The notes under the pieces are model-generated. The model searched no databases and was not told where the DNA came from. It worked only from the letters and a program-made list of their open reading frames with translations. Positions 2,978 through 27,381 of a stretch of DNA of 64,000 nucleotides are shown in pieces. Numbering within the stretch: position 1 is the stretch's first letter; each line of letters starts with the position of its first letter. The stretch comes from Dongiaceae bacterium (GTDB taxonomy: Bacteria; Pseudomonadota; Alphaproteobacteria; SHNJ01): positions 86,397 through 150,396 of the forward strand of contig JBFXCK010000002.1 of NCBI GenBank assembly GCA_050182275.1. The letters are read 5' to 3'. The position numbers and the translations under genes were made by a program.

Positions 2978-3048
2978 CTCATCCTTCGACTAAGCTCAGG
3001 ATGAGCTGAATTTATAAATAGCTCATGGTGAGCTTGTCGAACCATGAG
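2978..3048. repeat. Paired palindromic hairpin repeat, locus 1. The first hairpin has a CTCATCCT stem with the reverse-orientation loop. The second has a CTCATGGT stem with loop GAGCTTGTCGA.
   Basis: gctcatccttcgactaagctcaggatgagc (2978-3006) and gctcatggtgagcttgtcgaaccatgag (3021-3048), lying between groES and groEL. The same family occurs at four other loci in the window. Confidence 0.6.
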
Positions 3049-3078
3049 TGCCAGGAAAATCTCAAAGGAGAAATTATT

Positions 3079-4731
3079 ATGGCTGCAAAACAATTATTAT
3101 TCGCTGAAGAAGGCCGCAAACGTTTAGCCCGTGGCGCTATGATGGCTGCTACGGCGGTTGGCGCAACCTTAGGCCCGTCTGGCCGCACGGCGTTATTGCA
3201 AAAATCTTTTGGCGCGCCGCGCATCACCAAAGACGGCGTAACGGTCGCCAAGGAAATCGAATTGCAAGACCCAATTGAAAATATGGGTGCGCAAATGATC
3301 AAGGAAGCCGCTTCCAAAACCGTAGATCAGGCCGGCGATGGCACGACTACAGCTTCGGTGCTGGCGGGAGCTTTGATTGACGACAGCTTGAAGTATTTGA
3401 TGGCCGGCGCCAATGTTACCGATTTGCGCCGCGGCATGGAAATGGCCTCAAGCGCTGTTGTTGAAAAATTGCTGAAAATGGCCAAGAAGGTTTCGGGCAA
3501 TAATGAAATCGCCCAAATCGGCACCATTTCGGCCAATGGCGACAAGGAAATCGGCGATATGCTGGCCAAGGCCATGGATAAAGTGGGCCATGAAGGCGTT
3601 ATCACTGTTGAAGAAGCCAAATCGATGGAAACCGAATTGGATGTTGTTGAAGGCATGCAATTCGACCGTGGCTATATCAGCCCCTATTTCGTAACCAATG
3701 CGGAAAAGATGGTGGCTGAACTCGATAATCCTTTCATTTTGGTTTATGAAAAGAAATTATCGGGTCTGCAAAGCTTGCTGCCTTTATTGGAAGCGGTTGT
3801 GCAATCGGGCCGCCCCCTAATGATCATTGCCGAAGATGTAGAAGGCGAAGCCTTGGCCACGCTCGTGGTCAACAAGCTGCGCGGCGGCTTGAAAGTGGCT
3901 GCTGTCAAAGCCCCCGGCTTTGGCGACCGCCGCAAGGCCATGCTGGAAGACATTGCGATCTTAACCAATGGTCAAATGATCAGCGAAGATTTGGGCATTA
4001 AGCTGGAGAACGTTAATTTGAAAATGCTCGGTCAAGCGAAGAAAGTGGTGATCACGAAAGAAGAAACCACCATCATCGACGGCTCGGGCAAAAAAGCCGA
4101 TGTGGAAGCGCGTTGCGATCAAATCAAGGCGCAAATCGATGAAACTTCGTCCGACTATGACAAGGAAAAGCTGCAGGAACGCTTGGCTAAGCTTTCCGGC
4201 GGCGTGGCTGTTATCCGCGTTGGCGGCGCCACCGAAGTCGAAGTCAAAGAACGCAAAGACCGTGTAGAAGACGCCATGCACGCAACCCGCGCTGCCGTTC
4301 AAGAAGGCATCGTGCCGGGCGGCGGTGTGGCCTTGATTTATGCTGGCAAGGCCTTAGATGGCTTGAAGCCTGCTAATGACGATCAACGCGCCGGCATCGA
4401 TATTGTCAAACGCGCCCTCCAAGCCCCGTTGCGCAAAATTGCGTCGAATGCGGGTGAGGATGGATCGGTTATTGTTGGCAAAGTCATGGAAGGCAAAGAC
4501 ACCAATTTCGGCTGGGACGCCTATAAGGGCGAATACACCGATTTGGTGAAAGCCGGTATCATCGACCCCGCCAAAGTGGTGCGCACCGCGCTGCAATCGG
4601 CCGTATCGGTCGCCAGCCAGTTGATCACCACCGAAACCGTCATCGCCGATATTCCGAAGAAGGAAGAATCGCATGCCGGCCATGATCATGGCGGCGGCGG
4701 TATGGGCGGCATGGGCGGAATGGGTTTCTAA
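3079..4731 (+). CDS. groEL: Chaperonin GroEL (60 kDa)
   Basis: [13 protein letters not shown]... with the Gly-Met-rich C-terminus [16 protein letters not shown] aaggag at 3065-3070. The ORF-track start at 3025 is an upstream in-frame extension; 3079 is preferred. Confidence 0.96.
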
Positions 4732-4848: not shown

Positions 4849-5667
4849 ATGCCTATCAATCTTAAAGCCCATTTTATTCCTGCTATAGCAGCGGCTGTTA
4901 CCAGTTTCAGCGCTGAAGCCGGTATTATCGCCCATGAAGCTTTTGACTATGCAACCGGCAATTTTGGCGGCACGGCCGTGCTAAATGGGGGAATAGGCTG
5001 GGGTGGCGCTTGGCAAACTCTGCCTAACCATGGCCGCATTGAATTCGGCAATTTAGATCATTCGCTGTGCCAAGAAGGTCTTGGCAACAATGCCGGCTCT
5101 TTTTCTGTCTTTACCCAAAATGAAAGTTTTATTGGCTCACGCGCCTTATCCGCGCCAGCGGGCAACGGGGAAGTGTGGCTGTCTTTTGTCAGCAGGCTTG
5201 GCACCGCTATTGGCGGACAGACGCGCGTGGAATTGGCGGGCGGTGATGCCCTTTCTCAATTTGTAGGGGCCGATTATAGCACTTTTAACGCCGGCGGCGG
5301 CCAAGTCGGCGTCCGCGCCCGCTATAGCGATACGGCACAAGAAATACAATTCAACCTTCCAGTGATTAATTTCACCGGCAATATTTTTACTGTAATGCAT
5401 TTATCGGCGGATCCGAATATTCCCGGCAATAGTTTGGTGGAATATTGGGCAGGCTTGCCATTTCAGCCTTTTGAAGATTCTTTTTACCGTTCTTTCTCCG
5501 CGCCTTCGCTTAACTATACGCATTTAAGGGCGAATGCCGGCGGCGGCAATATCGATGAAATCCGCTTGGGCACTTCGCTAGGCGATGTGTCAACCGTTCC
5601 TGTCCCCTCTATCGCCTTGCCCTTAGCGGTGATGGCAGGCTTGGCGGCCAATAGACGCTGCCGGTAG
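4849..5667 (+). CDS. Secreted protein with an N-terminal signal peptide and a C-terminal PEP-CTERM-like sorting tail (VPxP motif, hydrophobic span, RRCR).
   Basis: N-terminus MPINLKAHFIPAIAAAVTSFSAEA. C-terminus VPVPSIALPLAVMAGLAANRRCR, resembling the VPLPA- and PEP-CTERM exosortase signals. Gly- and Asn-rich beta-type body. Confidence 0.5.
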   Translation: MPINLKAHFIPAIAAAVTSFSAEAGIIAHEAFDYATGNFGGTAVLNGGIGWGGAWQTLPNHGRIEFGNLDHSLCQEGLGNNAGSFSVFTQNESFIGSRALSAPAGNGEVWLSFVSRLGTAIGGQTRVELAGGDALSQFVGADYSTFNAGGGQVGVRARYSDTAQEIQFNLPVINFTGNIFTVMHLSADPNIPGNSLVEYWAGLPFQPFEDSFYRSFSAPSLNYTHLRANAGGGNIDEIRLGTSLGDVSTVPVPSIALPLAVMAGLAANRRCR

Positions 5668-6531
5668 ATTGTTTCGCCTTCTTTTTTGGTGAGCGCCAAC
5701 GGGCCGGACTATATAAACTTCTTCATCAAGATCGCTTAAGGAAGCCTCGGCAGGTGTGTATAGCCTGCCGAACCAAGAATGCATTTCTTGAATGCTTTTG
5801 GCCATGATGTGGGGGCCGGGATGTTTACGCCAATCATAGCCGTCATATTTTTCCGGTTGACGGATGATTTTTTCCGCTTTTTCTAAATCATAATTGCTTA
5901 AGCGCAATGCATAAACCGCGCGGCGAATCCATTGACGGTTAAAAGGAGCAAATTTTTTTGCCGGATCAAGCCAGATAAAATAATGTTTTTTCCAAGCATT
6001 CACTAAAAGATAAGGCCGGTCTTTTAATCGATCAAACTCGGCAGGATCAGAAAGCAATAAATCGAATTTTCCGCCAAAAATGGCGCAAAGCTCTAACAGC
6101 TTCATTTTGTGGGCAGATGGGAAGGGCAAAAAATGCATATGCGCATGATCGGTGCAGGCGCAGCCCTGGGCTTGATGGGCGCGGTCTTCGCCGCTTAAGG
6201 CGGGGCTAGTTATTTTGGCGGTTCCATGTTCAGCAAGAACGGGATATTCATCGGTTCTAAGCTTATACGTCCAGCACATTTTTTGTAGCATATCCAAGGC
6301 TTGAGCGCGTATTGCCGGATCCATCGCCGCGAAAGAGGGATAAAATTCGTGCGGTGCGATCAGAAAATGGTGAGGAATAGCGCCAACACTGGGAAAAAAT
6401 AAAAATGGCTCTTTATCTTCACCCAGTTCCGTTATATAGGTTTGCCGGAAAGGGGCCGGATGCTGCGGCCCCAAAAAGCGGGGCAGTAATTCTTCCTTAT
6501 GCGCATCGGCGAGAGAATGGAAGATGATCAT
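5623..6531 (-). CDS. HIT-fold protein of the GalT/Ap4A-phosphorylase type, with a histidine-triad motif in the C-terminal half. Function unassigned.
   Basis: HAHMHFLPF (H-phi-H-phi-H-phi-phi) motif. 302 aa. Start codon lies 10 nt downstream of the lysS stop on the same strand, so it is probably co-transcribed. Confidence 0.4.
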   Translation of the reverse strand: MIIFHSLADAHKEELLPRFLGPQHPAPFRQTYITELGEDKEPFLFFPSVGAIPHHFLIAPHEFYPSFAAMDPAIRAQALDMLQKMCWTYKLRTDEYPVLAEHGTAKITSPALSGEDRAHQAQGCACTDHAHMHFLPFPSAHKMKLLELCAIFGGKFDLLLSDPAEFDRLKDRPYLLVNAWKKHYFIWLDPAKKFAPFNRQWIRRAVYALRLSNYDLEKAEKIIRQPEKYDGYDWRKHPGPHIMAKSIQEMHSWFGRLYTPAEASLSDLDEEVYIVRPVGAHQKRRRNNLPAASIGRQACHHR

Positions 6532-6540
6532 TAATTTTTT

Positions 6541-8043
6541 CTATTCCTTCGGCCGCAAAGTCGGGAAGGCGATGACTTCGCGGATCGAGGGGCTGTCGGT
6601 TAGCAGCATGACTAAACGGTCAATGCCGATTCCAAGGCCGCCCGTGGGCGGCAGGCCGTATTCCAGGGCGGTGATGTAATCTTCATCCATCATTTGCGCT
6701 TCGGCGTCACCGGCTTCGCGCTGTTTGGTTTGTTCCTCAAAACGGGCGCGTTGGTCGATGGGGTCGGTTAATTCAGAGAAAGCATTAGCGATCTCCCAGC
6801 CGTTGATATAGCTTTCAAACCGTTCCACTAAACGCGGCGTTTCACGGTGCGCTTTGGCTAATGGTGAAATATCAAAAGGCAGGTTGGTGACATGAGTCGG
6901 TTGAATCAAGCTTGATTCAACCTTTTCATCGAACACGGCGGCGACCACTTGGCCCCAATTGCTTTTGGGATCAACTTTAATGCCGATAGTCCCGGCTACT
7001 TCCAGGGCTTTTTTGGCATCGGGATATTGTAAGAAATCGATATTGGTTTTCTCTTTTACTAATTCCACCATCGAGCGGCGCGGCCAGGGCGGCGTTAAAT
7101 CAATTTCCTTTCCCTGAAAGGTAATTTTTTTTGTGCCCAGAACTTCTTCGGCCACATAGGCTACAAGATTTTCGGTGAAACTCATCACTTCATTGTAATC
7201 GGCAAAGGCCTGGTAAGATTCCACCGAGGTGAATTCGGGATTATGTTTGATCGAAAGCCCCTCATTCCTGAAACAGCGGTTGATTTCATAAACGCCATCG
7301 GCAAGGCCGCCCACAATCAGGCGTTTTAAATGCAATTCGGGCGCAACGCGCAAATAAAAGTCGGTATCCAGCGCGTTATGATGGGTGATAAAGGGTTTGG
7401 CCGAGGCGCCGCCCATAATGGCGTGCAGCATGGGGGTTTCAACTTCCAAAAATCCTTTGGAATCGTAATAGCGGCGCATGGCGGCGACAATCGCGCTGCG
7501 CTTGCGCAACGTGTCGCGGGTTTTTTCGTTCATGATCAGATCGACATAGCGCTGGCGATAGCGAATTTCAGTATCGCTAAGGCCATGGTATTTTTCCGGC
7601 AGTGGTAAAAGTGCCTTGCTTAAAACGGTGATAACGGTCGCCTTGACCGATAATTCCCCGCGCGCGGTGCGGCGGATGGTGCCTTCAACGCCGACGATAT
7701 CGCCGATATCCAGCAAAGCCAGAATAGACTGGGAAAGAATCGATAAATTATCTTTGTGCGAAAACACTTGAATCTTGCCGCTGACATCCATGATATCCAT
7801 GAACATGCCGGAATTACGGTGCGCCATGACGCGGCCCGCAATTTTCACATGATCTTCGGTTTCTTGATCGGCCGGAAGGTCTTTATATTTTTGTTGCAGG
7901 TCGGCGGCTTGATGGCTGCGCTCGAAATGATAAGGATAGGGATTGACCCCAAGTTCACGCAATTTTTGCGCTTTTTCCAGGCGGATACGGCGATATTCAT
8001 TATCGTCGAGGGCGGGGGCCTCGGCTTTTTTCGGTTTGGTCAT
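6541..8043 (-). CDS. lysS: Lysyl-tRNA synthetase, class II
   Basis: 500 aa with an OB anticodon-binding N-domain and class II motifs, including FRNEGLSIKHNPEFTSVE and GGLGIGIDRLVMLLT. Confidence 0.95.
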   Translation of the reverse strand: MTKPKKAEAPALDDNEYRRIRLEKAQKLRELGVNPYPYHFERSHQAADLQQKYKDLPADQETEDHVKIAGRVMAHRNSGMFMDIMDVSGKIQVFSHKDNLSILSQSILALLDIGDIVGVEGTIRRTARGELSVKATVITVLSKALLPLPEKYHGLSDTEIRYRQRYVDLIMNEKTRDTLRKRSAIVAAMRRYYDSKGFLEVETPMLHAIMGGASAKPFITHHNALDTDFYLRVAPELHLKRLIVGGLADGVYEINRCFRNEGLSIKHNPEFTSVESYQAFADYNEVMSFTENLVAYVAEEVLGTKKITFQGKEIDLTPPWPRRSMVELVKEKTNIDFLQYPDAKKALEVAGTIGIKVDPKSNWGQVVAAVFDEKVESSLIQPTHVTNLPFDISPLAKAHRETPRLVERFESYINGWEIANAFSELTDPIDQRARFEEQTKQREAGDAEAQMMDEDYITALEYGLPPTGGLGIGIDRLVMLLTDSPSIREVIAFPTLRPKE

Positions 8044-8051
8044 AGCTATTT

Positions 8052-9275
8052 CTAGCTATTCGCGCGCGAGGAGGCAAGCGGGACGACTTGGCAATCGATA
8101 TTATTTTGCTTCAATTTTTGGCAGGAATATTCGGCCCGGTTGTAATCAAGGCCAATCAGGCGGGCGCGGTACAGGCGTTGATGGCCTTTGGCGGTTTCCA
8201 CCACATTGACCGAGGCGTCTTTAGCCCAGTATTGGGCGATTTTACGGGCGCTTAAAGCGGCTTCCCTGGCGCGCTTGGCGCTGGTAAAGGCGCCGATTTG
8301 TAAGCCCCAATCGCCTTCAACGCCATCGCCTTGCTCGGTTTCATTGTCAACGGCGCTGACATCGATAACATCGGCTTCTTCTTCCTCATCGCGGGCGGCT
8401 ACCTTGGTTGGCCGTTTGACGATGCGATGGGCGTAATTGCGATTCATGTTGATGCCCAATTTGGCGAAGCCATTATTCAATAATAGCTCCATTTGCCGGT
8501 CGCGCCAGCGGGGCGATTGTCCGCCCAGCACTACGCCAATTACCCGTCTGCCGCCCTCTTGGGCCGAGGCGATTAAGTTAAAGCCCGAAGCCCTGATATA
8601 GCCGGTTTTAATGCCATCGGCGCCCGGATAATTCGCCAGCAAGTGGTTATGGTTGGTGATGGTGTTGCCGCGGAAAGTAAAGGTTTCGGTCGAAAATAAT
8701 TTGTAATATTGCGGATAATTAAAAATAATCGCCCGGCTTAAAGTGGCTAAATCACGGGCGGTGCTGATTTGGGCGGAATGAGGCAGGCCCGAAGCATTGC
8801 GGAAATTGGTATTGCGCATGCCAAGCTGTTTAGCCCGCATGGTCATCATTTGCGCGAATTTGGCCTCGCTGCCGCCCATGCCCTCGGCCAAAACGGTTGC
8901 GGCGTCATTGGCCGAGCGGGTGATCAGGGCCAAAATAGCCTCCCGCACCGTGATGCGGTCGCCGGCTTCGAGATAAAGCTTGCTAGGCGCCCGCTTGGCG
9001 GCGTTTCTAGAGACCGGCAGGGATTGGTTCATTTTCAGGCGGCCTTGCTCTAAGGCCTCGAAAGTCATGTACAGCGTCATCACCTTGGTCAAGGAGGCGG
9101 GGAAGCGCTTGGCATCCGGGTTGACCGAGCTTAAAACTTGGCCAGACTGGGCATCGACCACGATCGAGGCGTATTTAGCGTGGGCTATACTTGGGAATAA
9201 TATTACTAGCGCCAGCGGCAAAGCCACCGCCAGCGTTTGAAGCAATTTCGGCAATGATCCGTTTATTCGGCGCAT
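8052..9275 (-). CDS. D-alanyl-D-alanine carboxypeptidase (PBP5/6-type, S11 family) with a C-terminal SPOR domain
   Basis: Signal peptide. SLTKVMT motif (SxxK active site). SPOR-like tail WGLQIGAFTSAKRAREAALSARKI...YRARLIGL. Confidence 0.85.
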   Translation of the reverse strand: MRRINGSLPKLLQTLAVALPLALVILFPSIAHAKYASIVVDAQSGQVLSSVNPDAKRFPASLTKVMTLYMTFEALEQGRLKMNQSLPVSRNAAKRAPSKLYLEAGDRITVREAILALITRSANDAATVLAEGMGGSEAKFAQMMTMRAKQLGMRNTNFRNASGLPHSAQISTARDLATLSRAIIFNYPQYYKLFSTETFTFRGNTITNHNHLLANYPGADGIKTGYIRASGFNLIASAQEGGRRVIGVVLGGQSPRWRDRQMELLLNNGFAKLGINMNRNYAHRIVKRPTKVAARDEEEEADVIDVSAVDNETEQGDGVEGDWGLQIGAFTSAKRAREAALSARKIAQYWAKDASVNVVETAKGHQRLYRARLIGLDYNRAEYSCQKLKQNNIDCQVVPLASSRANS

Positions 9276-12474: not shown

Positions 12475-12969
12475 ATGGATATGAGCCGTTTTATGAACCA
12501 AAATTCCTCGCCCGATTGGGTTTTGCATCCGCAATTGGCGGCGGATGCGGTTGCAATCGGCGACTTGCCCTTATGCCGCGTGCTGGTAATGAATGAAGCC
12601 AATTGGCCTTGGATCATTTTGGTGCCGCGGCAAATGCGCGCCAGCGAATATGTAAGGGAAATCTTCGAACTTTCACCGGCCGGGCAGCAGCAATTAACCC
12701 AGGAAATCAGCAAGACGGCGCAGGCCTTGCAACAAGATACGGGCGCTGAAAAAATGAATATCGCCGCGCTTGGCAATATGGTGCCGCAACTGCATATCCA
12801 CATTATCGCCCGTTTTAAAGATGATCCGGCTTGGCCTAAGCCGGTATGGGGGGCAGTGGCGCGTCAAGTAATGGAAGAAGCTCAATTTCAAGAAAAACGG
12901 GGTATTTTAGAAAAACTCTTGAAAATAACATTCAATGCTGATTTTTTGGGCATAAATATAATTAAGTGA
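12475..12969 (+). CDS. HIT-family (histidine triad) nucleotide hydrolase
   Basis: VPQLHIHIIAR histidine-triad motif. The start codon could lie a few codons downstream. Confidence 0.75.
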   Translation: MDMSRFMNQNSSPDWVLHPQLAADAVAIGDLPLCRVLVMNEANWPWIILVPRQMRASEYVREIFELSPAGQQQLTQEISKTAQALQQDTGAEKMNIAALGNMVPQLHIHIIARFKDDPAWPKPVWGAVARQVMEEAQFQEKRGILEKLLKITFNADFLGINIIK

Positions 12970-13155
12970 TTGATTTTAAATTATATAATAATTTCCAAAT
13001 TGACTAAAATTTAATTCCCTTAAGGTAAACTGAAACTAGCCTCAATTAGGGGCAACATTTACCTTGGGGGGAACGATGCAGGATGTGTCGTCAAGGGCTT
13101 GTGCACTGCGGACGCGTAGTGCGGAAACTCTTGTTTTATGTAGTAAAAGCCATAG

Positions 13156-13192
13156 CTGTTACACTTTCCGTGTAACGGCTTTTTGTGTTTTT
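13156..13192 (+). terminator. Terminator-like hairpin with a T-tract in the leader about 170 nt upstream of the first flagellin-like gene
   Basis: CTGTTACAC-TTTCC-GTGTAACGG followed by CTTTTTGTGTTTTT. Confidence 0.4.
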
Positions 13193-13344
13193 AATACGGC
13201 CCAAGGCTGGATCAAGCTTCCCCGCTTGAATCCCCGATGTTTCTTTGCTGCCAACGCTTTTTTCCGTTGCTTCTGTGCCGCGCCCCCCGCGGCCATAGGC
13301 GCGCGGATAAAGCGGTGGCAAGCAAAAACCCCTTATCCGGTTGA

Positions 13345-13793
13345 TGGGAGGGCCTCGCCATGAGCCTAACCATTAACTCCAACCTCGCCGCCAGCATCAG
13401 CACCCGCACGGTTCAACAAACCGACCGGGCGATGAGTGATTCGCTTGCCAAATTGGCAAGCGGCCAGCGCGTTCCGAACGCCCGCTATGACACGGCGGCG
13501 CTTAGCATTTCGGGGCGCATCCGCGGCCAAATAGTATCCTTGCAGGCGGCGGTAACGAATGTGACGCAAGCCAGCAGCTTGCTGCAAACGGTTGATGCCA
13601 CGTATCAACGCGTGCAAGACATGCTGTACCGCATGCGTGATTTATCCACGCAGGCGCAAGGCTCGCAATTATCGACGGTGGAACGCGGCATGCTGAATAC
13701 CGAGTTTCAGCAACTGAAAACCGAGATCACGCGCTTGGCGAATGGTACAACTTTTGGCGCTACTGCTTTGTTTGCGGTTGGTAACATGTCTTT
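13345..13793 (+). repeat. Direct repeat copy A: 449 bp identical to 15222..15670. It covers the RBS and the flagellin N-terminal domain.
   Basis: By visual comparison the nucleotides are identical from tgggagggcctcgccatgagc through ...tttgcggttggtaa. Confidence 0.85.
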
Positions 13794-15240
13794 CCATAGC
13801 GGGACCAATTATGCCTTGGCTGGAAGCCCAATGTCAGTCAATAGCGGCGATTTTAATGGCGATGGCATTCTAGATATTTTATCGGTGGTGGCCACAACAG
13901 CCATTCAACTGTCTTTAGGCAATAGCGATGGAACTTTCCAAGCAGCGCAAACCGTAGTTGCATCGCAATCTTCTATCACTAACTTAGTGCTCGGTGATTT
14001 TAATGGCGATGGCCGCACCGACTTCATTACCAGCGCTGCAACCGGTTTAATATATTTTGGCAATAGCAACGGCACCGTCACCCAAAGCGGGTCGATTGCT
14101 TATGGCGGCCCTAATTCCGTTACCAGTGGCGATATAAATGGCGATGGTATTGTTGATATTATCGCCAGCGTTGGCACCAACATCAATGTTTATTATGGCA
14201 ATGGCAACGGCACTTTCCAATCGGCGGTAACTTCAGCTATTGGCACCGCTTTCAGTCAATTGGTGGTTGCCGATACTAATAACGATACAATTTTGGATAT
14301 CGTGGCGTTGGATAGCGCCAACCGTCAGGTGCGCAGTTTATATGGCAATGGAGCAGGCGCCTTTACCTCGGGAACAGCCAGCGCGACTTTTGGCCAAATC
14401 TTAAGCCGCATGCAAGTCGTTGATATGAATAATGACGGCTTTTTGGATGTGTTTATCGGCGAATCCAACGGTATTTCTTCAACATATGTATTGACCAACA
14501 CTGGCCAAGGAAATTGGAATGCGTCTCAGACCATTACGCTTGGCAGCGTCAATCTTTATGCCCGGGCGGTTGATTTTAATAATGATGGGTTCATGGACAT
14601 TATCAGCGTAAACGATTTTGGCCAAACCTATACCTACCGGCAAGGAACCGGCAATTTAACCTTTGCCAATGCGGTAACTTCCAGCAGCCAGGGTTCTAAT
14701 CTTGGATATGTGGAATATGCGGATTTTAATAATGATGGCCGGATGGATTTTGTCACCCGGGCGGGCAACGGTTTCCGCGCTATTCTTAATCAAGCCACAT
14801 CCGGCTTGGAAGGTTCGGTGCGGGTAGGGGCGGGCGTTGGCAGCGGCAATGATATTTCTTACCGCAGTTTTAGCGTGGCGCTGAATAGTTTGGCGCAGGG
14901 ATTATCTTCCTCGCTTATCACTCAAACCGGCTCGGCAAAACGGGCTACAGAAACAGTCATCGCGGCGATTGATCAATTGTTGCGCTATCGCGCGAATATC
15001 GGCGCTTTATTAAACCGCCTTGAAAAAGTAGGGCAGAATTTAGATACGCTTTTAGAAAATAATGAATTAGCCCGTTCCAGCCTGATGGACGTGGATGCGG
15101 CCGAGGAAATGTCGAAATTCATTTCCTTGCAAATACTAAAAGATGCCGGGATTTCGATGCTGGCGCAAAGCAATGTAACCCACAAAAATATTTTGGCGCT
15201 GCTTGATATCGCGCCCCAAGGTGGGAGGGCCTCGCCATGA
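13360..15240 (+). CDS. Flagellin-family protein, copy 1. The N- and C-terminal helical domains are conserved, and the central variable domain is replaced by a predicted 7-bladed FG-GAP/VCBS calcium-binding beta-propeller.
   Basis: The N-terminus MSLTINSNLA...LAKLASGQRV...LQAAVTNVTQASSLLQTVDATYQRVQDMLYRMRDLSTQA aligns with FliC D0/D1. The C-terminus LRYRANIGALLNRLE...AEEMSKFISLQILKDAGISMLAQSNV aligns with the flagellin C-domain. Seven repeats of the DxNxDGxxD type, e.g. GDFNGDGILDIL and VDFNNDGFMDIIS, each preceded by a G-x-G-T-F FG-like segment. RBS gggaggg. Confidence 0.8.
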   Translation: MSLTINSNLAASISTRTVQQTDRAMSDSLAKLASGQRVPNARYDTAALSISGRIRGQIVSLQAAVTNVTQASSLLQTVDATYQRVQDMLYRMRDLSTQAQGSQLSTVERGMLNTEFQQLKTEITRLANGTTFGATALFAVGNMSFHSGTNYALAGSPMSVNSGDFNGDGILDILSVVATTAIQLSLGNSDGTFQAAQTVVASQSSITNLVLGDFNGDGRTDFITSAATGLIYFGNSNGTVTQSGSIAYGGPNSVTSGDINGDGIVDIIASVGTNINVYYGNGNGTFQSAVTSAIGTAFSQLVVADTNNDTILDIVALDSANRQVRSLYGNGAGAFTSGTASATFGQILSRMQVVDMNNDGFLDVFIGESNGISSTYVLTNTGQGNWNASQTITLGSVNLYARAVDFNNDGFMDIISVNDFGQTYTYRQGTGNLTFANAVTSSSQGSNLGYVEYADFNNDGRMDFVTRAGNGFRAILNQATSGLEGSVRVGAGVGSGNDISYRSFSVALNSLAQGLSSSLITQTGSAKRATETVIAAIDQLLRYRANIGALLNRLEKVGQNLDTLLENNELARSSLMDVDAAEEMSKFISLQILKDAGISMLAQSNVTHKNILALLDIAPQGGRASP

Positions 15241-15670
15241 GCCTAACCATTAACTCCAACCTCGCCGCCAGCATCAGCACCCGCACGGTTCAACAAACCG
15301 ACCGGGCGATGAGTGATTCGCTTGCCAAATTGGCAAGCGGCCAGCGCGTTCCGAACGCCCGCTATGACACGGCGGCGCTTAGCATTTCGGGGCGCATCCG
15401 CGGCCAAATAGTATCCTTGCAGGCGGCGGTAACGAATGTGACGCAAGCCAGCAGCTTGCTGCAAACGGTTGATGCCACGTATCAACGCGTGCAAGACATG
15501 CTGTACCGCATGCGTGATTTATCCACGCAGGCGCAAGGCTCGCAATTATCGACGGTGGAACGCGGCATGCTGAATACCGAGTTTCAGCAACTGAAAACCG
15601 AGATCACGCGCTTGGCGAATGGTACAACTTTTGGCGCTACTGCTTTGTTTGCGGTTGGTAATATGAATTT
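15222..15670 (+). repeat. Direct repeat copy B, the 449-bp partner of 13345..13793
   Basis: Identical sequence. It also supplies the last 6 codons and stop of copy 1. The ATGA overlap at 15237-15240 couples the stop of copy 1 to the start of copy 2. Confidence 0.85.
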
Positions 15671-17108
15671 TAGCAGCAGCACCAATTATAGCCTGGGAGC
15701 TAGCCCTTCCTCTTTTCAGGTGGCTGATTTCACCGGAGATGGATTTGCAGATATTGTAACAATGGATAGTAACGATGATCTGCTAATTAGGCAAGGTGAT
15801 GGCAATGGAGGCTTTGGTCCGGCTTCTAGTATTTCCGTTTTGCTTGCTACTTCTCTCATTGCCGCCGGTGATTTTAATGGCGACGGAAGAACGGATATCT
15901 TCACTGGCGGATCTTTAGCTGGTGTATTTTTAAGCAATGGTAATGGAACCTTTACTTCAGGGGGTTCAATGGCCATTGGCGGGATTTCCAGTCTGAATGT
16001 AGCAGACCTGAATGGCGATGGTTTTCAAGATGTAGTAACCACGATCGGGATTGGCGGCTTCGTCAATGTGTATTTAGGAAATGGTAATGGTACTTTTGCC
16101 AGCGTGTTATCTAGCACTCCGGTAACAGTAGCAGGACAAACAGTTTTAGGCGATGTCAACAACGATGGCATTATAGACGCAATTGTTTACGATTCCGCAA
16201 ATACACGCGTTCAAACATTAATTGGCAATGGCAACGGAACTTTTACCACCGGGGCGGTAAGCGCTAATTTTGGGGCAAATCTGAGTACACCGCAGTTAGT
16301 TGATTTTAATAATGATGGTTTCTTGGATTATTATGTTGGGGATTCGAATGGTATTTCTTCCAGTTATTTACTTATCAATAACGGGCAAGGTGGGTGGAAT
16401 ACCCCGCAAACAATTGCGATTGGCACCATTAATGGCAATGCTTACGCCGCTGATTTTAACGCCGATGGCAATGTGGATATTATTAGCACTGGTGGCGCGG
16501 GGCAGACTTTCTCTTACCGTCAAGGGACAGGCATTATAACCTTCGCTTCTGCTGTAACTTCTGCTGCGCAGGGCGCTACGATCGGGCAAGCACGATATGC
16601 GGATATAAATAATGATGGAAGGCTTGATGTTATTTTAGGAGCAGGTTCGAATCTAAGGGTCATTTTAAATCAGGCCGTTGTAGGATTAGAGGGTTCGGTA
16701 CGAGTAGGATCGGGCGCTGGAAACGGCAATGATATTGCCCTTCGCAGTTTCGGTATAACTCTAAATAATTTATCTCAAGGCCTGGCTTTTTCCGTCATTA
16801 CCCAAATTGGATCCGCCAAACGGGCAACAACAAATGTCATCGCTGCGATTGATCAATTGTTGCGCTATCGCGCGAATATCGGCGCTTTGTTGAACCGCCT
16901 TGAAAAAGTAGGGCAGAATTTAGATACGCTTTTAGAAAATAATGAATTAGCCCGTTCCAGCCTGATGGACGTGGATGCGGCCGAGGAAATGTCGAAATTC
17001 ATATCTTTGCAAATACTAAGAGATGCCGGGATTTCGATGCTGGCGCAAAGCAAGGTAACCCAGCAAAACCTCGTGCTCTTGTTTCAATATGCTCCTAAGT
17101 TTCAATAA
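15237..17108 (+). CDS. Flagellin-family protein, copy 2 (623 aa). Same architecture as copy 1, with a divergent 7-blade FG-GAP propeller.
   Basis: The first 147 aa are identical to copy 1. The C-terminal 80 aa are about 95% identical. Seven DxNxDG repeats (ADFTGDGFADIV ... ADINNDGRLDVIL) are collinear with copy 1 but only about half identical. Confidence 0.8.
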   Translation: MSLTINSNLAASISTRTVQQTDRAMSDSLAKLASGQRVPNARYDTAALSISGRIRGQIVSLQAAVTNVTQASSLLQTVDATYQRVQDMLYRMRDLSTQAQGSQLSTVERGMLNTEFQQLKTEITRLANGTTFGATALFAVGNMNFSSSTNYSLGASPSSFQVADFTGDGFADIVTMDSNDDLLIRQGDGNGGFGPASSISVLLATSLIAAGDFNGDGRTDIFTGGSLAGVFLSNGNGTFTSGGSMAIGGISSLNVADLNGDGFQDVVTTIGIGGFVNVYLGNGNGTFASVLSSTPVTVAGQTVLGDVNNDGIIDAIVYDSANTRVQTLIGNGNGTFTTGAVSANFGANLSTPQLVDFNNDGFLDYYVGDSNGISSSYLLINNGQGGWNTPQTIAIGTINGNAYAADFNADGNVDIISTGGAGQTFSYRQGTGIITFASAVTSAAQGATIGQARYADINNDGRLDVILGAGSNLRVILNQAVVGLEGSVRVGSGAGNGNDIALRSFGITLNNLSQGLAFSVITQIGSAKRATTNVIAAIDQLLRYRANIGALLNRLEKVGQNLDTLLENNELARSSLMDVDAAEEMSKFISLQILRDAGISMLAQSKVTQQNLVLLFQYAPKFQ

Positions 17109-17270: not shown

Positions 17271-18764
17271 ATGGTTAGTTCTGAAAAGTACCGGGTAGGG
17301 CTTGGCCCCATCTCGGTTTTCTGTGGAGCCTCCGAATACCCGTATAACGAAAAAAACCCGTTCCGCGAGGTCAATCTCGAACATCAACGGCAAATCGAAC
17401 GCTTTGGCCAAATTTTGGCCGGCGCCAATATTCCCCTGATTTGGGGTGCCGGGCAAACCGGCCTGATGGGTGCGGTCAGCCGCAGCGTGATTGATCATGG
17501 CGGCATGGCGATTGGGGTATCAACCGAACATTTGGTCAATGGCAAGGAAGGCGCACAAAAAGGCATTGCGACATTGTTGGTCGCCGATTCGATGCAATCG
17601 CGCAAAATGGCCTTCAATAAATTATCCCGCGCCTTTGTGATTTTTCCGGGCGGGATCGGCACCTTTGATGAAGTCACCGAATATTTGCTGGAACGCGAAA
17701 ACGGCGAGCATCATAAGCCGATTGTCCTGGTTAACATCGACGGTTTTTACGAGCCGCTGCTGCAATATTTCAATGAGCTGGTTAAAAGCCGTTATATGAC
17801 GCAACAAGCGCGTGACATGCTGGTGGTGGTGCGTAACGCCGATGAAATTTTGCCCGCCATTACTGCCGAGCTGTTGAAATTAGAGGCCGATCATCACCGC
17901 CATACCCGCCCGATTTTCAGCAATGAAACGCGCATCGGCCAGCATAACCGGATCGTTGTACGCCGGCACTTTGCCGAATTGCCGATCGGCCGCCATAATT
18001 ATCCCAAATGCGATTTGGGCGTAGGCAGTGTGGCGATCATTTCCTCTTCTTCCGAAGCGGCGCTGAATTATGCCGCAAATGCGCCGCACCGTCAGGAAAT
18101 CGAAAAACTGATTAATTTGCTGGCGCAATACCGCCTGCCGCGCCTTATTCACTCAGGCCAAAATTCCGGCATGAAGGGAATGATCGCCCGCTTGGCAAAG
18201 CAGCAAGGCATTCCGGCAATGGGCATCACCACCAAATTTTTGGAATCCCAAGGCCATGCCGATATCCACGCCGAAACATTATTGATCGCCGATAATGAAC
18301 AATCGGCCGAATTCGCGCTGAAGAATGTGTCGGATGCGATCATCATCGGCCCCGGCGCTATCGATTCTTTGGAAAAATTGACCGATTATTTGACCGAAGT
18401 CGACATCAAAGAAAGCAATCAGCGTTTGGTGATTATGAATGTCGGCGGCCATTATGACGGCCTGCTCAATTACTTCTTGTATTTGATCGAGCGCGGCTAT
18501 TTCGCGCCGGCGGCGATGGCGAAACTTTGCATTGCTAAAACTGCCGAAGAAGTAATCGCGCAAATCAAATCGCCAATGCCTCTAGGCAACGCCGAGCTTC
18601 TTCCCAATAAAATGGATTTGGTTGCGGCGGTGGCGGCGGACAAGCCAAGACAGCCCGCCGCCTTGATTCATGACCCGAATTTCCCGCGCTATCCGGTGAC
18701 GGCGGATTCCGTCAATCTCTTGATGGAAAAATTGGGATTGGTTGACTTTACCGGCACTGCGTAA
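17271..18764 (+). CDS. Tandem LOG-family (TIGR00730-like Rossmann) protein. The first domain is canonical and the second is degenerate.
   Basis: Domain 1 has WGAGQTGLMGAV and PGGIGTFDEVTEYL (PGGxGTxxE). Domain 2 has SGQNSGMKGMIA and a degenerate GPGAIDSLEKL. RBS agaggaaag. Confidence 0.65.
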   Translation: MVSSEKYRVGLGPISVFCGASEYPYNEKNPFREVNLEHQRQIERFGQILAGANIPLIWGAGQTGLMGAVSRSVIDHGGMAIGVSTEHLVNGKEGAQKGIATLLVADSMQSRKMAFNKLSRAFVIFPGGIGTFDEVTEYLLERENGEHHKPIVLVNIDGFYEPLLQYFNELVKSRYMTQQARDMLVVVRNADEILPAITAELLKLEADHHRHTRPIFSNETRIGQHNRIVVRRHFAELPIGRHNYPKCDLGVGSVAIISSSSEAALNYAANAPHRQEIEKLINLLAQYRLPRLIHSGQNSGMKGMIARLAKQQGIPAMGITTKFLESQGHADIHAETLLIADNEQSAEFALKNVSDAIIIGPGAIDSLEKLTDYLTEVDIKESNQRLVIMNVGGHYDGLLNYFLYLIERGYFAPAAMAKLCIAKTAEEVIAQIKSPMPLGNAELLPNKMDLVAAVAADKPRQPAALIHDPNFPRYPVTADSVNLLMEKLGLVDFTGTA

Positions 18765-26420: not shown

Positions 26421-26592
26421 AAAAAATAAGCCAAAACTCAAACCCCTTGCAATTTCTTTAGATTTTGCTATAAAACCCCCACTTCTCACGCGGGAGCTGC
26501 GTGGCTTATTTCAATCAATAGGCTAACGCATCCGGTGCCTGATGGTCAGGTGCTTTGCCCCGCGGCGGATTAACCGGATGAAAGGAACTATA

Positions 26593-27381
26593 ATGTCGCA
26601 ACAACCTGCGTTTACGATGCGTCAGCTTTTAGAGGCTGGCGTTCACTTTGGCCACAACACGCGCCGCTGGAACCCGAAAATGGCCAGCTATATTTTCGGC
26701 GAGCGTAATAAGATTCATATTCTTAATCTCGAAAAAACCGTGCCGATGCTGAATCAAGCCTTGAAGGCGATTTACAGCACTGCCGCCAGCGGTGGCCGTG
26801 TTTTGTTTGTCGGCACCAAGCGCCAGGCGGCGGAACCAATTGCTGAAACCGCAAAACGCTGTGGCCAGTTTTACGTTAACAGCCGTTGGCTGGGCGGGAT
26901 GCTGACCAATTGGAAAACCATTTCCAATTCCATCCGCCGCTTGAAAAGCCTGGATGAGCAAATCAACAACCCCGAAAGCGGCTTAACGAAAAAAGAACTT
27001 TTGAACATGACGCGCGAGCGCGAAAAGCTGGAAAAGGCCTTGGGCGGTATCCGCGAAATGGGCGGCCTGCCCGACATTTTATTCGTGATCGATACGAATA
27101 AGGAGCAAATCGCCATCGCCGAAGCCAAGCGCTTGGGTATTCCGATTGTGGCCGTGGTTGATTCCAACTGCGATCCGGAAGGCATTACCTATCCGATCCC
27201 CGGCAATGATGACGCCATGCGCGCCATCAATTTGTATTGCGAATTGGTTGGTCAAACCGTTCTGGCCGGCCTGCAAGCCGAAATGCAAAAAAGCGGCGTT
27301 GATTTAGGTGAAGCCGCCGAGCCCGCGATGGAGGCAAGCTTGGCTGCCGCCAATGACGGCCGCGAAGAAGCGAGCGCTTAA
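26593..27381 (+). CDS. rpsB: 30S ribosomal protein S2
   Basis: [33 protein letters not shown] aaaggaa at 26581-26587. Confidence 0.95.

Follow-up and report, generated by a model that had tools for sequence, protein, structure and literature searches.

No part of the flagellum is less well understood than the variable outer domains of flagellins, and for very few of them has a function beyond motility been demonstrated, the proteolytic flagellins being the clearest case. In these flagellinolysins a metallopeptidase occupies the hypervariable region of the flagellin, and a single filament can display as many as ~20,000 of them (Eckhard et al. 2017; PMC7643111). An AlphaFold survey sorted flagellin outer domains into 682 clusters, of which cluster #55 is listed as 'WD40-repeats'; a 793-aa flagellin with four outer domains (Geovibrio thiophilus, 9au6) assembles into filaments, and large flagellins are known to build thick filaments (Fields et al. 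2024; PMC11532411). Here we describe two tandem genes, A and B, in a stretch of 64,000 nucleotides (the window; positions 86,397 to 150,396 of contig JBFXCK010000002.1, assembly GCA_050182275.1). NCBI entries with identical protein sequences come from a metagenome-assembled genome (MAG) labelled Dongiaceae (Rhodospirillales) and name both products 'FG-GAP-like repeat-containing protein' only. We have very little doubt about the architecture of the two proteins, in which flagellin D0/D1 termini surround a seven-bladed FG-GAP propeller. The genes, identified as open reading frames (ORFs), and their domains are as follows.

13360-15240, + strand: gene A, FG-GAP flagellin of 626 aa (ORF call; NCBI MGE0251502.1 / MGE3478430.1)
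13360-13794, + strand: gene A residues 1-145, helices ND0 (9-34), ND1a (45-99) and ND1b (106-129) (Pfam Flagellin_N, AlphaFold2)
13795-14793, + strand: gene A residues 146-478, seven-bladed FG-GAP propeller with 28 strands and seven DxNxDGxxD loops (Pfam, AlphaFold2)
14794-15240, + strand: gene A residues 479-626, D1 beta-hairpin (484-488, 498-502), CD1/CD0 helix 523-616 and tail (Pfam Flagellin_C, AlphaFold2, alignments to short flagellins)
15237-17108, + strand: gene B, FG-GAP flagellin of 623 aa (ORF call; NCBI MGE0251503.1 / MGE3478429.1)
15672-16673, + strand: gene B residues ~146-479, seven-bladed FG-GAP propeller with ~45-50% protein identity to the A propeller (Pfam, blast)

A first-pass annotation, made from the letters alone, had recognised flagellin helices at both ends of the two proteins and had proposed comparing them with the Pfam profiles. 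Both ends match significantly in both proteins. Flagellin_N (PF00669) scores 81.8 bits over aa 5-139 in A and B alike (threshold 26.6), with 135 of the 139 profile positions covered, and Flagellin_C (PF00700) scores 55.5 and 56.8 bits over aa 533-615 (threshold 23). A profile of 15 family members finds solved filament flagellins in the PDB with E-values down to 1.5e-61, and all 60 best hits listed are flagellins. The ND1 segment LYRMRDLSTQ is in register with LQRVRELAVQ of Salmonella FliC through R91, R93, L95 and Q98. In a set of 41 FG-GAP and ordinary flagellins R91, L95 and E115 do not vary, and Q98 is nearly invariant (at least 90%).

The Flagellin_N and Flagellin_C domains are also common to the hook-filament junction protein FlgL (HAP3), and the divergent family member P0091 carries the JGI name 'flagellin-like hook-associated protein FlgL'. 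The NCBIfam FlgL model TIGR02550 matches with an E-value of 1e-17. Its score of 64.3 bits nevertheless lies far below the cut-off of 127.2, whereas NCBIfam flagellin models reach 128.6 bits, and the nearest D0/D1 relatives, like the PDB hits, are flagellins. By both NCBIfam and PDB profile scores the proteins are thus nearer to flagellins than to FlgL. Since a genome can hold as many as three copies and flgK is not among the neighbours, a junction protein of the FlgL type or another minor axial protein is very improbable, and we rejected the FlgL identity on the scores.

For the region between the termini, the first-pass annotation had proposed seven FG-GAP repeats, each with a DxNxDGxxD loop, and all seven of the loop strings it quoted are present in A. 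Pfam profiles match seven such stretches in each protein. FG-GAP_3 scores 164 bits in A and 143 bits in B (threshold 26.9; E-values 9e-49 and 4e-42), and FG-GAP (PF01839) scores 85 and 61 bits (E-values 2.5e-24 and 1e-16). The calcium-type loops of A lie at residues 164, 213, 258, 305, 355, 405 and 455, and B has seven equivalents, which gives each propeller seven predicted Ca2+ loops. The 15 family members examined all have exactly seven such loops, of the form Dx[DN]x[DN]GxxD. The Asp residues at loop positions 1 and 9 are invariant in all seven, and the one at position 5 is invariant in five loops and nearly so in the other two. Outside the flagellin ends, the invariant positions are almost solely the Asp and Gly residues of these loops.

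Structure prediction of the monomer, which had also been proposed, gives D0/D1 helices plus a seven-blade propeller. A first AlphaFold2 run with a 15-sequence alignment reached a mean predicted local distance difference test score (pLDDT) of 76, and a second run with 41 sequences reached 88.4, with a predicted template modelling score of 0.77. In the second model, 28 beta-strands at residues 149-475 form seven blades of four strands in a closed propeller. They are followed by the hairpin strands 484-488 and 498-502 (pLDDT 82-92) and by a single long helix at 523-616. Foldseek matches the model to solved filament flagellins with E-values of 1e-16 to 1e-8. The gene A propeller (~333 aa) has an isoelectric point of 4.05 and contains no cysteine.

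Fold searches place the propeller nearest to FG-GAP lectins and integrin alpha subunits. With PVL-type lectins the likeness is one of fold alone, at 18-20% identity. Unlike the propellers of integrin alpha subunits and of the lectins PVL (2bwr/2bwm) and AAL-2 (4tqj), the one described here is an insert within a flagellin. It also carries a calcium-type loop on all seven blades, whereas integrins have three or four such loops and PVL has two calcium sites. A parallel exists with the flagellinolysins, which likewise use the flagellin scaffold to display a functional, non-structural domain; there the domain is an enzyme, here a binding-type propeller. A and B contain no HExxH motif and match no Pfam peptidase family, and we rejected a flagellinolysin identity on these grounds.

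The proteins share with canonical flagellins (Salmonella FliC 1ucu/9gnz; Geovibrio thiophilus 9au6) a D0/D1 helical core, a D1 hairpin and a variable domain that points outward. In canonical flagellins the outer domain is immunoglobulin-like or a beta-folium, and in the FG-GAP flagellins it is a seven-bladed propeller. The first-pass annotation had the propeller taking the place of D2/D3, a view that our alignments and the second AlphaFold2 model do not bear out. Short flagellins carry the D1 hairpin motif 'FQVGAN...I.V.I......LGL' directly after helix ND1b. In the FG-GAP flagellins the hairpin-equivalent segment SVRVGAGVGSGNDISYRSFSVALNSLAQGL (residues 483-513) sits C-terminal to the propeller in HMMER and MAFFT alignments, and the second AlphaFold2 run folds these residues as a hairpin. 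The propeller is therefore predicted to be inserted within D1, between ND1b and the beta-hairpin. In Salmonella FliC, D2/D3 leave D1 after the hairpin, whereas here the propeller precedes it. The hairpin assignment draws on the motif as identified by eye, on the HMMER and MAFFT alignments and on the second AlphaFold2 run; residues 483-513 used as a peptide query gave no PDB match, and local hits of the segment with hidden Markov models stayed below 5 bits. A propeller suits insertion at such a site because its two ends meet at ring closure. Four ordinary relatives of ~370-400 aa (P0121, P0122, P0131 and P0143) seem to bear inserts at the same site, a statistically weak match. Because one of these relatives, P0122, adjoins fliF-fliG-fliH-fliN-motA, insertion before the D1 hairpin seems compatible with normal flagellin function.

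This rare architecture is shared by ~16 sequence clusters, whose members measure 611-638 aa and have 31-44% identity to A, and all named sources of these clusters are uncultured Alphaproteobacteria. A representative search with the full-length profile, in which giant multi-propeller FG-GAP proteins dominate the top 150, has at least eight full-length family members among the matches listed. A species-level genome collection holds at least two, both in uncultured alphaproteobacterial MAGs. The architecture turns up again in separate assemblies from NCBI, JGI, ENA and Logan, and JGI labels some members 'flagellin'. The public-sequence search for Flagellin_N, FG-GAP and Flagellin_C in one protein, suggested in the first-pass annotation, thus returned clusters that were already deposited, and its claim of novelty holds in part. 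None of the papers in the library searched has a flagellin and an FG-GAP, VCBS or bladed propeller in one protein; related clusters are in the databases, and a WD40 flagellin cluster is already listed. Cluster #55 resembles the present family in having a predicted beta-propeller as the flagellin outer domain, for which its authors suggest co-option from a cellular protein (PMC11532411). It is named WD40 and not FG-GAP, and the survey mentions neither calcium loops nor these organisms (PMC11532411), though the cluster might be the present family. The FG-GAP propeller flagellins add to the known functional and propeller outer domains and are not a new category.

The reading of A and B as tandem copies is confirmed by two + strand ORFs with the same architecture. 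The stop codon of A and the start codon of B share an ATGA overlap, which suggests that the two genes form a single operon. The duplicated DNA starts at 13345, 15 nt 5' of each ATG; the ribosome-binding site of gene A is GGGAGGG, and the C-terminal tail of the A protein is encoded by the duplicated ribosome-binding-site segment. Comparison of A with B divides the genes into two nearly identical ends and a diverged centre. The features are listed below with Nei-Gojobori estimates of synonymous (dS) and nonsynonymous (dN) divergence.

13345-13816, + strand: gene-conversion tract 1, ribosome-binding site and A codons 1-~152, 97.9% DNA identity to 15222-15694 in B (blastn within the window)
14803-15187, + strand: gene-conversion tract 2, C-terminal helix region, 85% DNA identity to 16683-17068 in B (blastn within the window)
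A versus B N-terminus, codons 1-145: dS 0.019, dN 0.006, dN/dS 0.315
A versus B propeller, codons 146-478: dS 2.6 (saturated), dN 0.45, dN/dS ~0.17
A versus B C-terminal helix, codons 541-600: dS 0.11, dN 0.007, dN/dS 0.066

By blastn within the window, residues 1-145 of the two proteins are identical. Since dS is 0.02-0.11 at the ends and saturated in the propeller, the duplication is old and the ends have recently been homogenised by gene conversion, and the propellers are under purifying selection. A locus with three tandem copies (L005) shows a milder form of the same pattern, its copies being ~70-78% identical at their ends but 34-39% identical centrally. At locus L002/L003 a 370-aa ordinary flagellin lies immediately 3' of the FG-GAP flagellin and is identical to it at 70% of the N-terminal 137 aa and 59% of the C-terminal 99 aa; compared with FG-GAP flagellins of other genomes, its N-terminal identity is 48-59%. 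Concerted evolution of flagellin termini is known from Campylobacter flaA/flaB, Salmonella fliC/fljB and the flagellins of Caulobacter and Sinorhizobium. These multi-flagellin systems are alike in having tandem or dispersed paralogues with homogenised ends and diverged centres. They differ in that their central regions are ordinary outer domains or absent, where the FG-GAP flagellins have propellers. A tblastn search revealed no remnant of a deleted flagellin gene 5' of A.

The source of the window is a MAG, and in one assembly the contig ends 288 bp 5' of gene A, features that might be expected if the genes were an assembly chimera or two decaying pseudogenes. Neither reading frame is interrupted, however, and independent projects have yielded no fewer than 15 clusters with the same architecture. 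The purifying selection on the propeller and the confident AlphaFold2 model point in the same direction. The likelihood of a chimera or pseudogene pair is close to negligible, and we rejected an assembly artefact on the recurrence across assemblies.

The family has a leader motif of its own. In a 15-nt motif, GAYGCAGGAGGYRTC, the Shine-Dalgarno sequence lies within the loop of a hairpin whose 5-bp stem shows one compensatory UA/CG exchange. Exact copies are found 5' of the first FG-GAP flagellin gene at loci L002/L003, L005, L006 and L088 and 5' of both genes at L089. A search of the remaining 83 loci, most of them ordinary flagellin loci, found no copy. The copies, with the two leader features of the window, are as follows.

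L002, 9880-9894: GAYGCAGGAGGYRTC
L005, 6192-6206: GAYGCAGGAGGYRTC
L006, 4053-4067: GAYGCAGGAGGYRTC
L088, 9894-9908: GAYGCAGGAGGYRTC
L089, 7937-7951: GAYGCAGGAGGYRTC
L089, 10030-10044: GAYGCAGGAGGYRTC
Window, 13075-13089, + strand: degenerate copy GATGCAGGATGTGTC with 1 mismatch, 271 nt 5' of the gene A start (0.03 expected by chance, one in the window)
Window, 13154-13180, + strand: terminator-like hairpin followed by a T-run, in the 390-nt leader between the HIT gene and gene A (consensus scan alone)

The motif stands directly before the start codon in four cases, and in most copies another hairpin, with the loop AAAGUAU, comes ahead of it. It may be a translational control element, and its hairpin looks like a putative GGA-in-loop site to which a translational regulator could bind. 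Sigma-70 and terminator-like sites in the region are no more numerous than in shuffled sequence. At L089 the called start of P0012 (10001-10046) adds 16 aa to the N-terminus; judging by the leader motif and the alignment, translation begins instead at the GTG at ~10049, which would give a protein beginning SLTIQ. A 99-aa ORF at 13064-13363 of the window overlaps the gene A start codon with its terminal ATGA, the ribosome-binding-site segment being a copy of the A/B junction. We treat this ORF as spurious. We also considered, and rejected, a leader ORF coupled to the flagellin start as a feature of the family: such an ORF is present in the window and L002 and absent from L004 and L088. Two identical antisense ORFs of 83 aa in the duplicated N-terminal region (13366-13617 and 15243-15494, both - strand) are probably spurious as well.

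Taken together, we judge it probable that A, B and a third copy (P0004, which stands alone on another contig of the source MAG) encode accessory filament subunits that are exported by the flagellar apparatus and display the propeller, and we lean to the same extent towards incorporation into a filament. The proteins would leave the cell in an unfolded state by way of the flagellar type III apparatus, a route proposed because they have a flagellin N-terminus and lack cysteine, which is absent from all three copies of the source MAG. They would polymerise via D0/D1 into the flagellar filament in an accessory role, probably together with conventional flagellins, either as a co-polymer with these or as a separate filament segment. 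One acidic propeller per subunit would then lie on the filament surface outside D1, its fold stabilised by calcium. Because large flagellins such as 9au6 assemble, the size of the propeller should be no barrier to filament formation. Related carriers lend indirect support to flagellated hosts: the MAG CAYWJR01 has an FG-GAP flagellin beside groESL on one contig (L006) and three ordinary flagellins, FliD, two FliS and FliK on another (L009), and at L002/L003 the FG-GAP flagellin adjoins the ordinary flagellin with similar termini described above. The propeller layer would thicken the filament and would most plausibly form a multivalent binding surface for carbohydrate or particle adhesion, and the paralogues could differ in specificity or antigenicity. 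Expression may be controlled after transcription through the family-specific Shine-Dalgarno hairpin leader.

A binding or adhesion surface is favoured because the nearest structural relatives of the propeller are lectins and the ligand-binding heads of integrins. By this analogy a binding role is possible but tentative, and structural thickening is its main alternative. More speculative still is the idea that flagellar export and assembly have been repurposed for the display or secretion of thousands of calcium-dependent, lectin-like propellers, giving an 'adhesive flagellum' or a separate non-motility filament, with genes outside the flagellar regulon, a Shine-Dalgarno-hairpin leader of their own and paralogues with swappable binding specificities. 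If displayed, a rigid integrin-like propeller with seven calcium-type loops per subunit would make these filaments a clear candidate for a binding flagellum. The unusual D1 insertion site and the large globular outer domain also make the family an attractive target for cryo-electron microscopy, and it could serve as a natural scaffold for multivalent display.

Several observations weigh against accessory filament subunits. The conserved flagellin motif AxDDAAG reads ARYDTAA in the FG-GAP flagellins. The best NCBIfam flagellin score misses the curated whole-protein cut-off (128.6 versus 332 bits), the scores falling below the NCBIfam cut-offs because only the termini match. In the family alignment, the propeller has almost no invariant surface residues apart from the calcium loops, and a conserved ligand pocket is not evident. 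No sigma-28 (TAAA-N15-GCCGATAA) or sigma-54 (TGGCAC-N5-TTGC) consensus was found 5' of gene A or of most relatives. Unlike those of canonical flagellins, the genes lie outside flagellar clusters. We found no flagellar gene in the scanned parts of the 64-kb window, covered by Pfam searches of ORFs of at least 150 aa (1-13 and 39.5-64 kb) and by precomputed Pfam hits (17-25.6 kb); the segment at 25.6-39.5 kb had no Pfam scan and was read as housekeeping from ORF sizes, gene order and the rpsB leader. Nor does a flagellar gene lie within 10 kb of any family member examined. A query with D0/D1 only returned 26 flagellins, none of them traceable to the source MAG. Finally, the link between the two contigs of CAYWJR01, L006 and L009, depends on metagenomic binning.

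Part of this evidence fits proteins that are exported without forming a filament. The termini would then act as a signal for flagellar type III export and a handle for chaperones, and the protein would be a soluble lectin or adhesin that is released or kept at the surface. The genes always stand apart from flagellar genes in housekeeping neighbourhoods, with a leader motif that ordinary flagellin loci lack; their AxDDAAG motif has diverged (ARYD), and the nearest structural relatives of the propeller are soluble lectins. An export signal and chaperone handle would not, however, call for all of D0 and D1, which are kept throughout: the Pfam matches are full-length, the D1 hairpin is present, and R91, L95 and E115 are invariant and Q98 nearly so, ordinary relatives included. 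Moreover, gene conversion with the adjacent ordinary flagellin spans the polymerisation surfaces. Conservation of the whole of D0/D1 together with this conversion is hard to explain without assembly, and we regard export without a filament as unlikely. The first-pass annotation had noted that no flagellar genes flank the pair, which our scan confirms here and in the relatives, and, with the divergent D0/D1 sequence also in view, had held a role other than motility conceivable. The missing flagellar neighbours are a family trait and do not establish a non-flagellar host, because a related MAG has a normal filament locus on another contig.

In another interpretation, the FG-GAP flagellins are the main or only filament subunits and the propeller layer is structural or hydrodynamic, producing a thick, calcium-stiffened, sheath-like filament. 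The source MAG has three copies and no conventional flagellin has been traced there, another genome has three tandem copies, and the propeller lacks a conserved surface patch outside the calcium loops. Thick filaments of large flagellins offer a precedent (PMC11532411). Against this, related genomes carry ordinary flagellins, adjacent to the FG-GAP gene or on another contig, and the flagellin search of the source MAG was indirect and incomplete. We consider this interpretation quite unlikely and continue to prefer accessory subunits. In CAYWJR01, two TPR-GT41 glycosyltransferase genes (L009, 617-5021) lie directly 5' of the ordinary flagellin genes, which suggests flagellin glycosylation in that organism.

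The NCBI name of the two proteins leaves an annotation gap. PGAP assigns 'FG-GAP-like repeat-containing protein' because the NCBIfam flagellin cut-off is not reached, and since this name hides the flagellin identity, surveys of annotated flagellins can miss the family.

The immediate neighbours of the pair are those given in the first-pass annotation, a HIT hydrolase and a LOG-domain gene, and the Pfam hits agree.

12475-12969: HIT protein gene, upstream neighbour (Pfam)
17271-18764: double LOG-family protein of 497 aa, downstream neighbour (LDcluster4 and Lysine_decarbox domains)

With two LOG-type domains, the product of 17271-18764 is unusually long for the LOG family. Across the family a gene either stands alone or belongs to a tandem group of two or three, in housekeeping surroundings throughout. 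At L002/L003, L005, L088 and L006 the family gene is often beside groES-groEL, usg and an RP005_N/Pyr_redox_2 gene, and at L089 it lies between cytochrome bc1 genes and lgt. Loose synteny is visible among L088, L002 and L005, in the order Peptidase_S11, lysS, groES-groEL, FG-GAP flagellin, usg, RP005_N/Pyr_redox_2 and ctaA. The window has a rearranged order, with Pyr_redox_2 at 33-2240, groEL at 3025-4731, lysS at 6541-8043 and Peptidase_S11 at 8052-9275. Between groEL and lysS, the ORFs 4849-5667 and 5623-6531 (-), of 272 and 302 aa, are without a Pfam match.

Further along the window, the Rfam rpsB leader RF01815 matches at 26485-26591 with 43.8 bits (gathering score 40), 5' of a presumed rpsB at 26542-27381. 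The GC content, which averages ~51% over the window, drops to 35% at 61830-64000, right after a tRNA-Glu gene (61830-61905). The ORFs 61952-62839 and 63039-63701 in this low-GC stretch have no Pfam match, and the stretch may be an element integrated at the tRNA gene.

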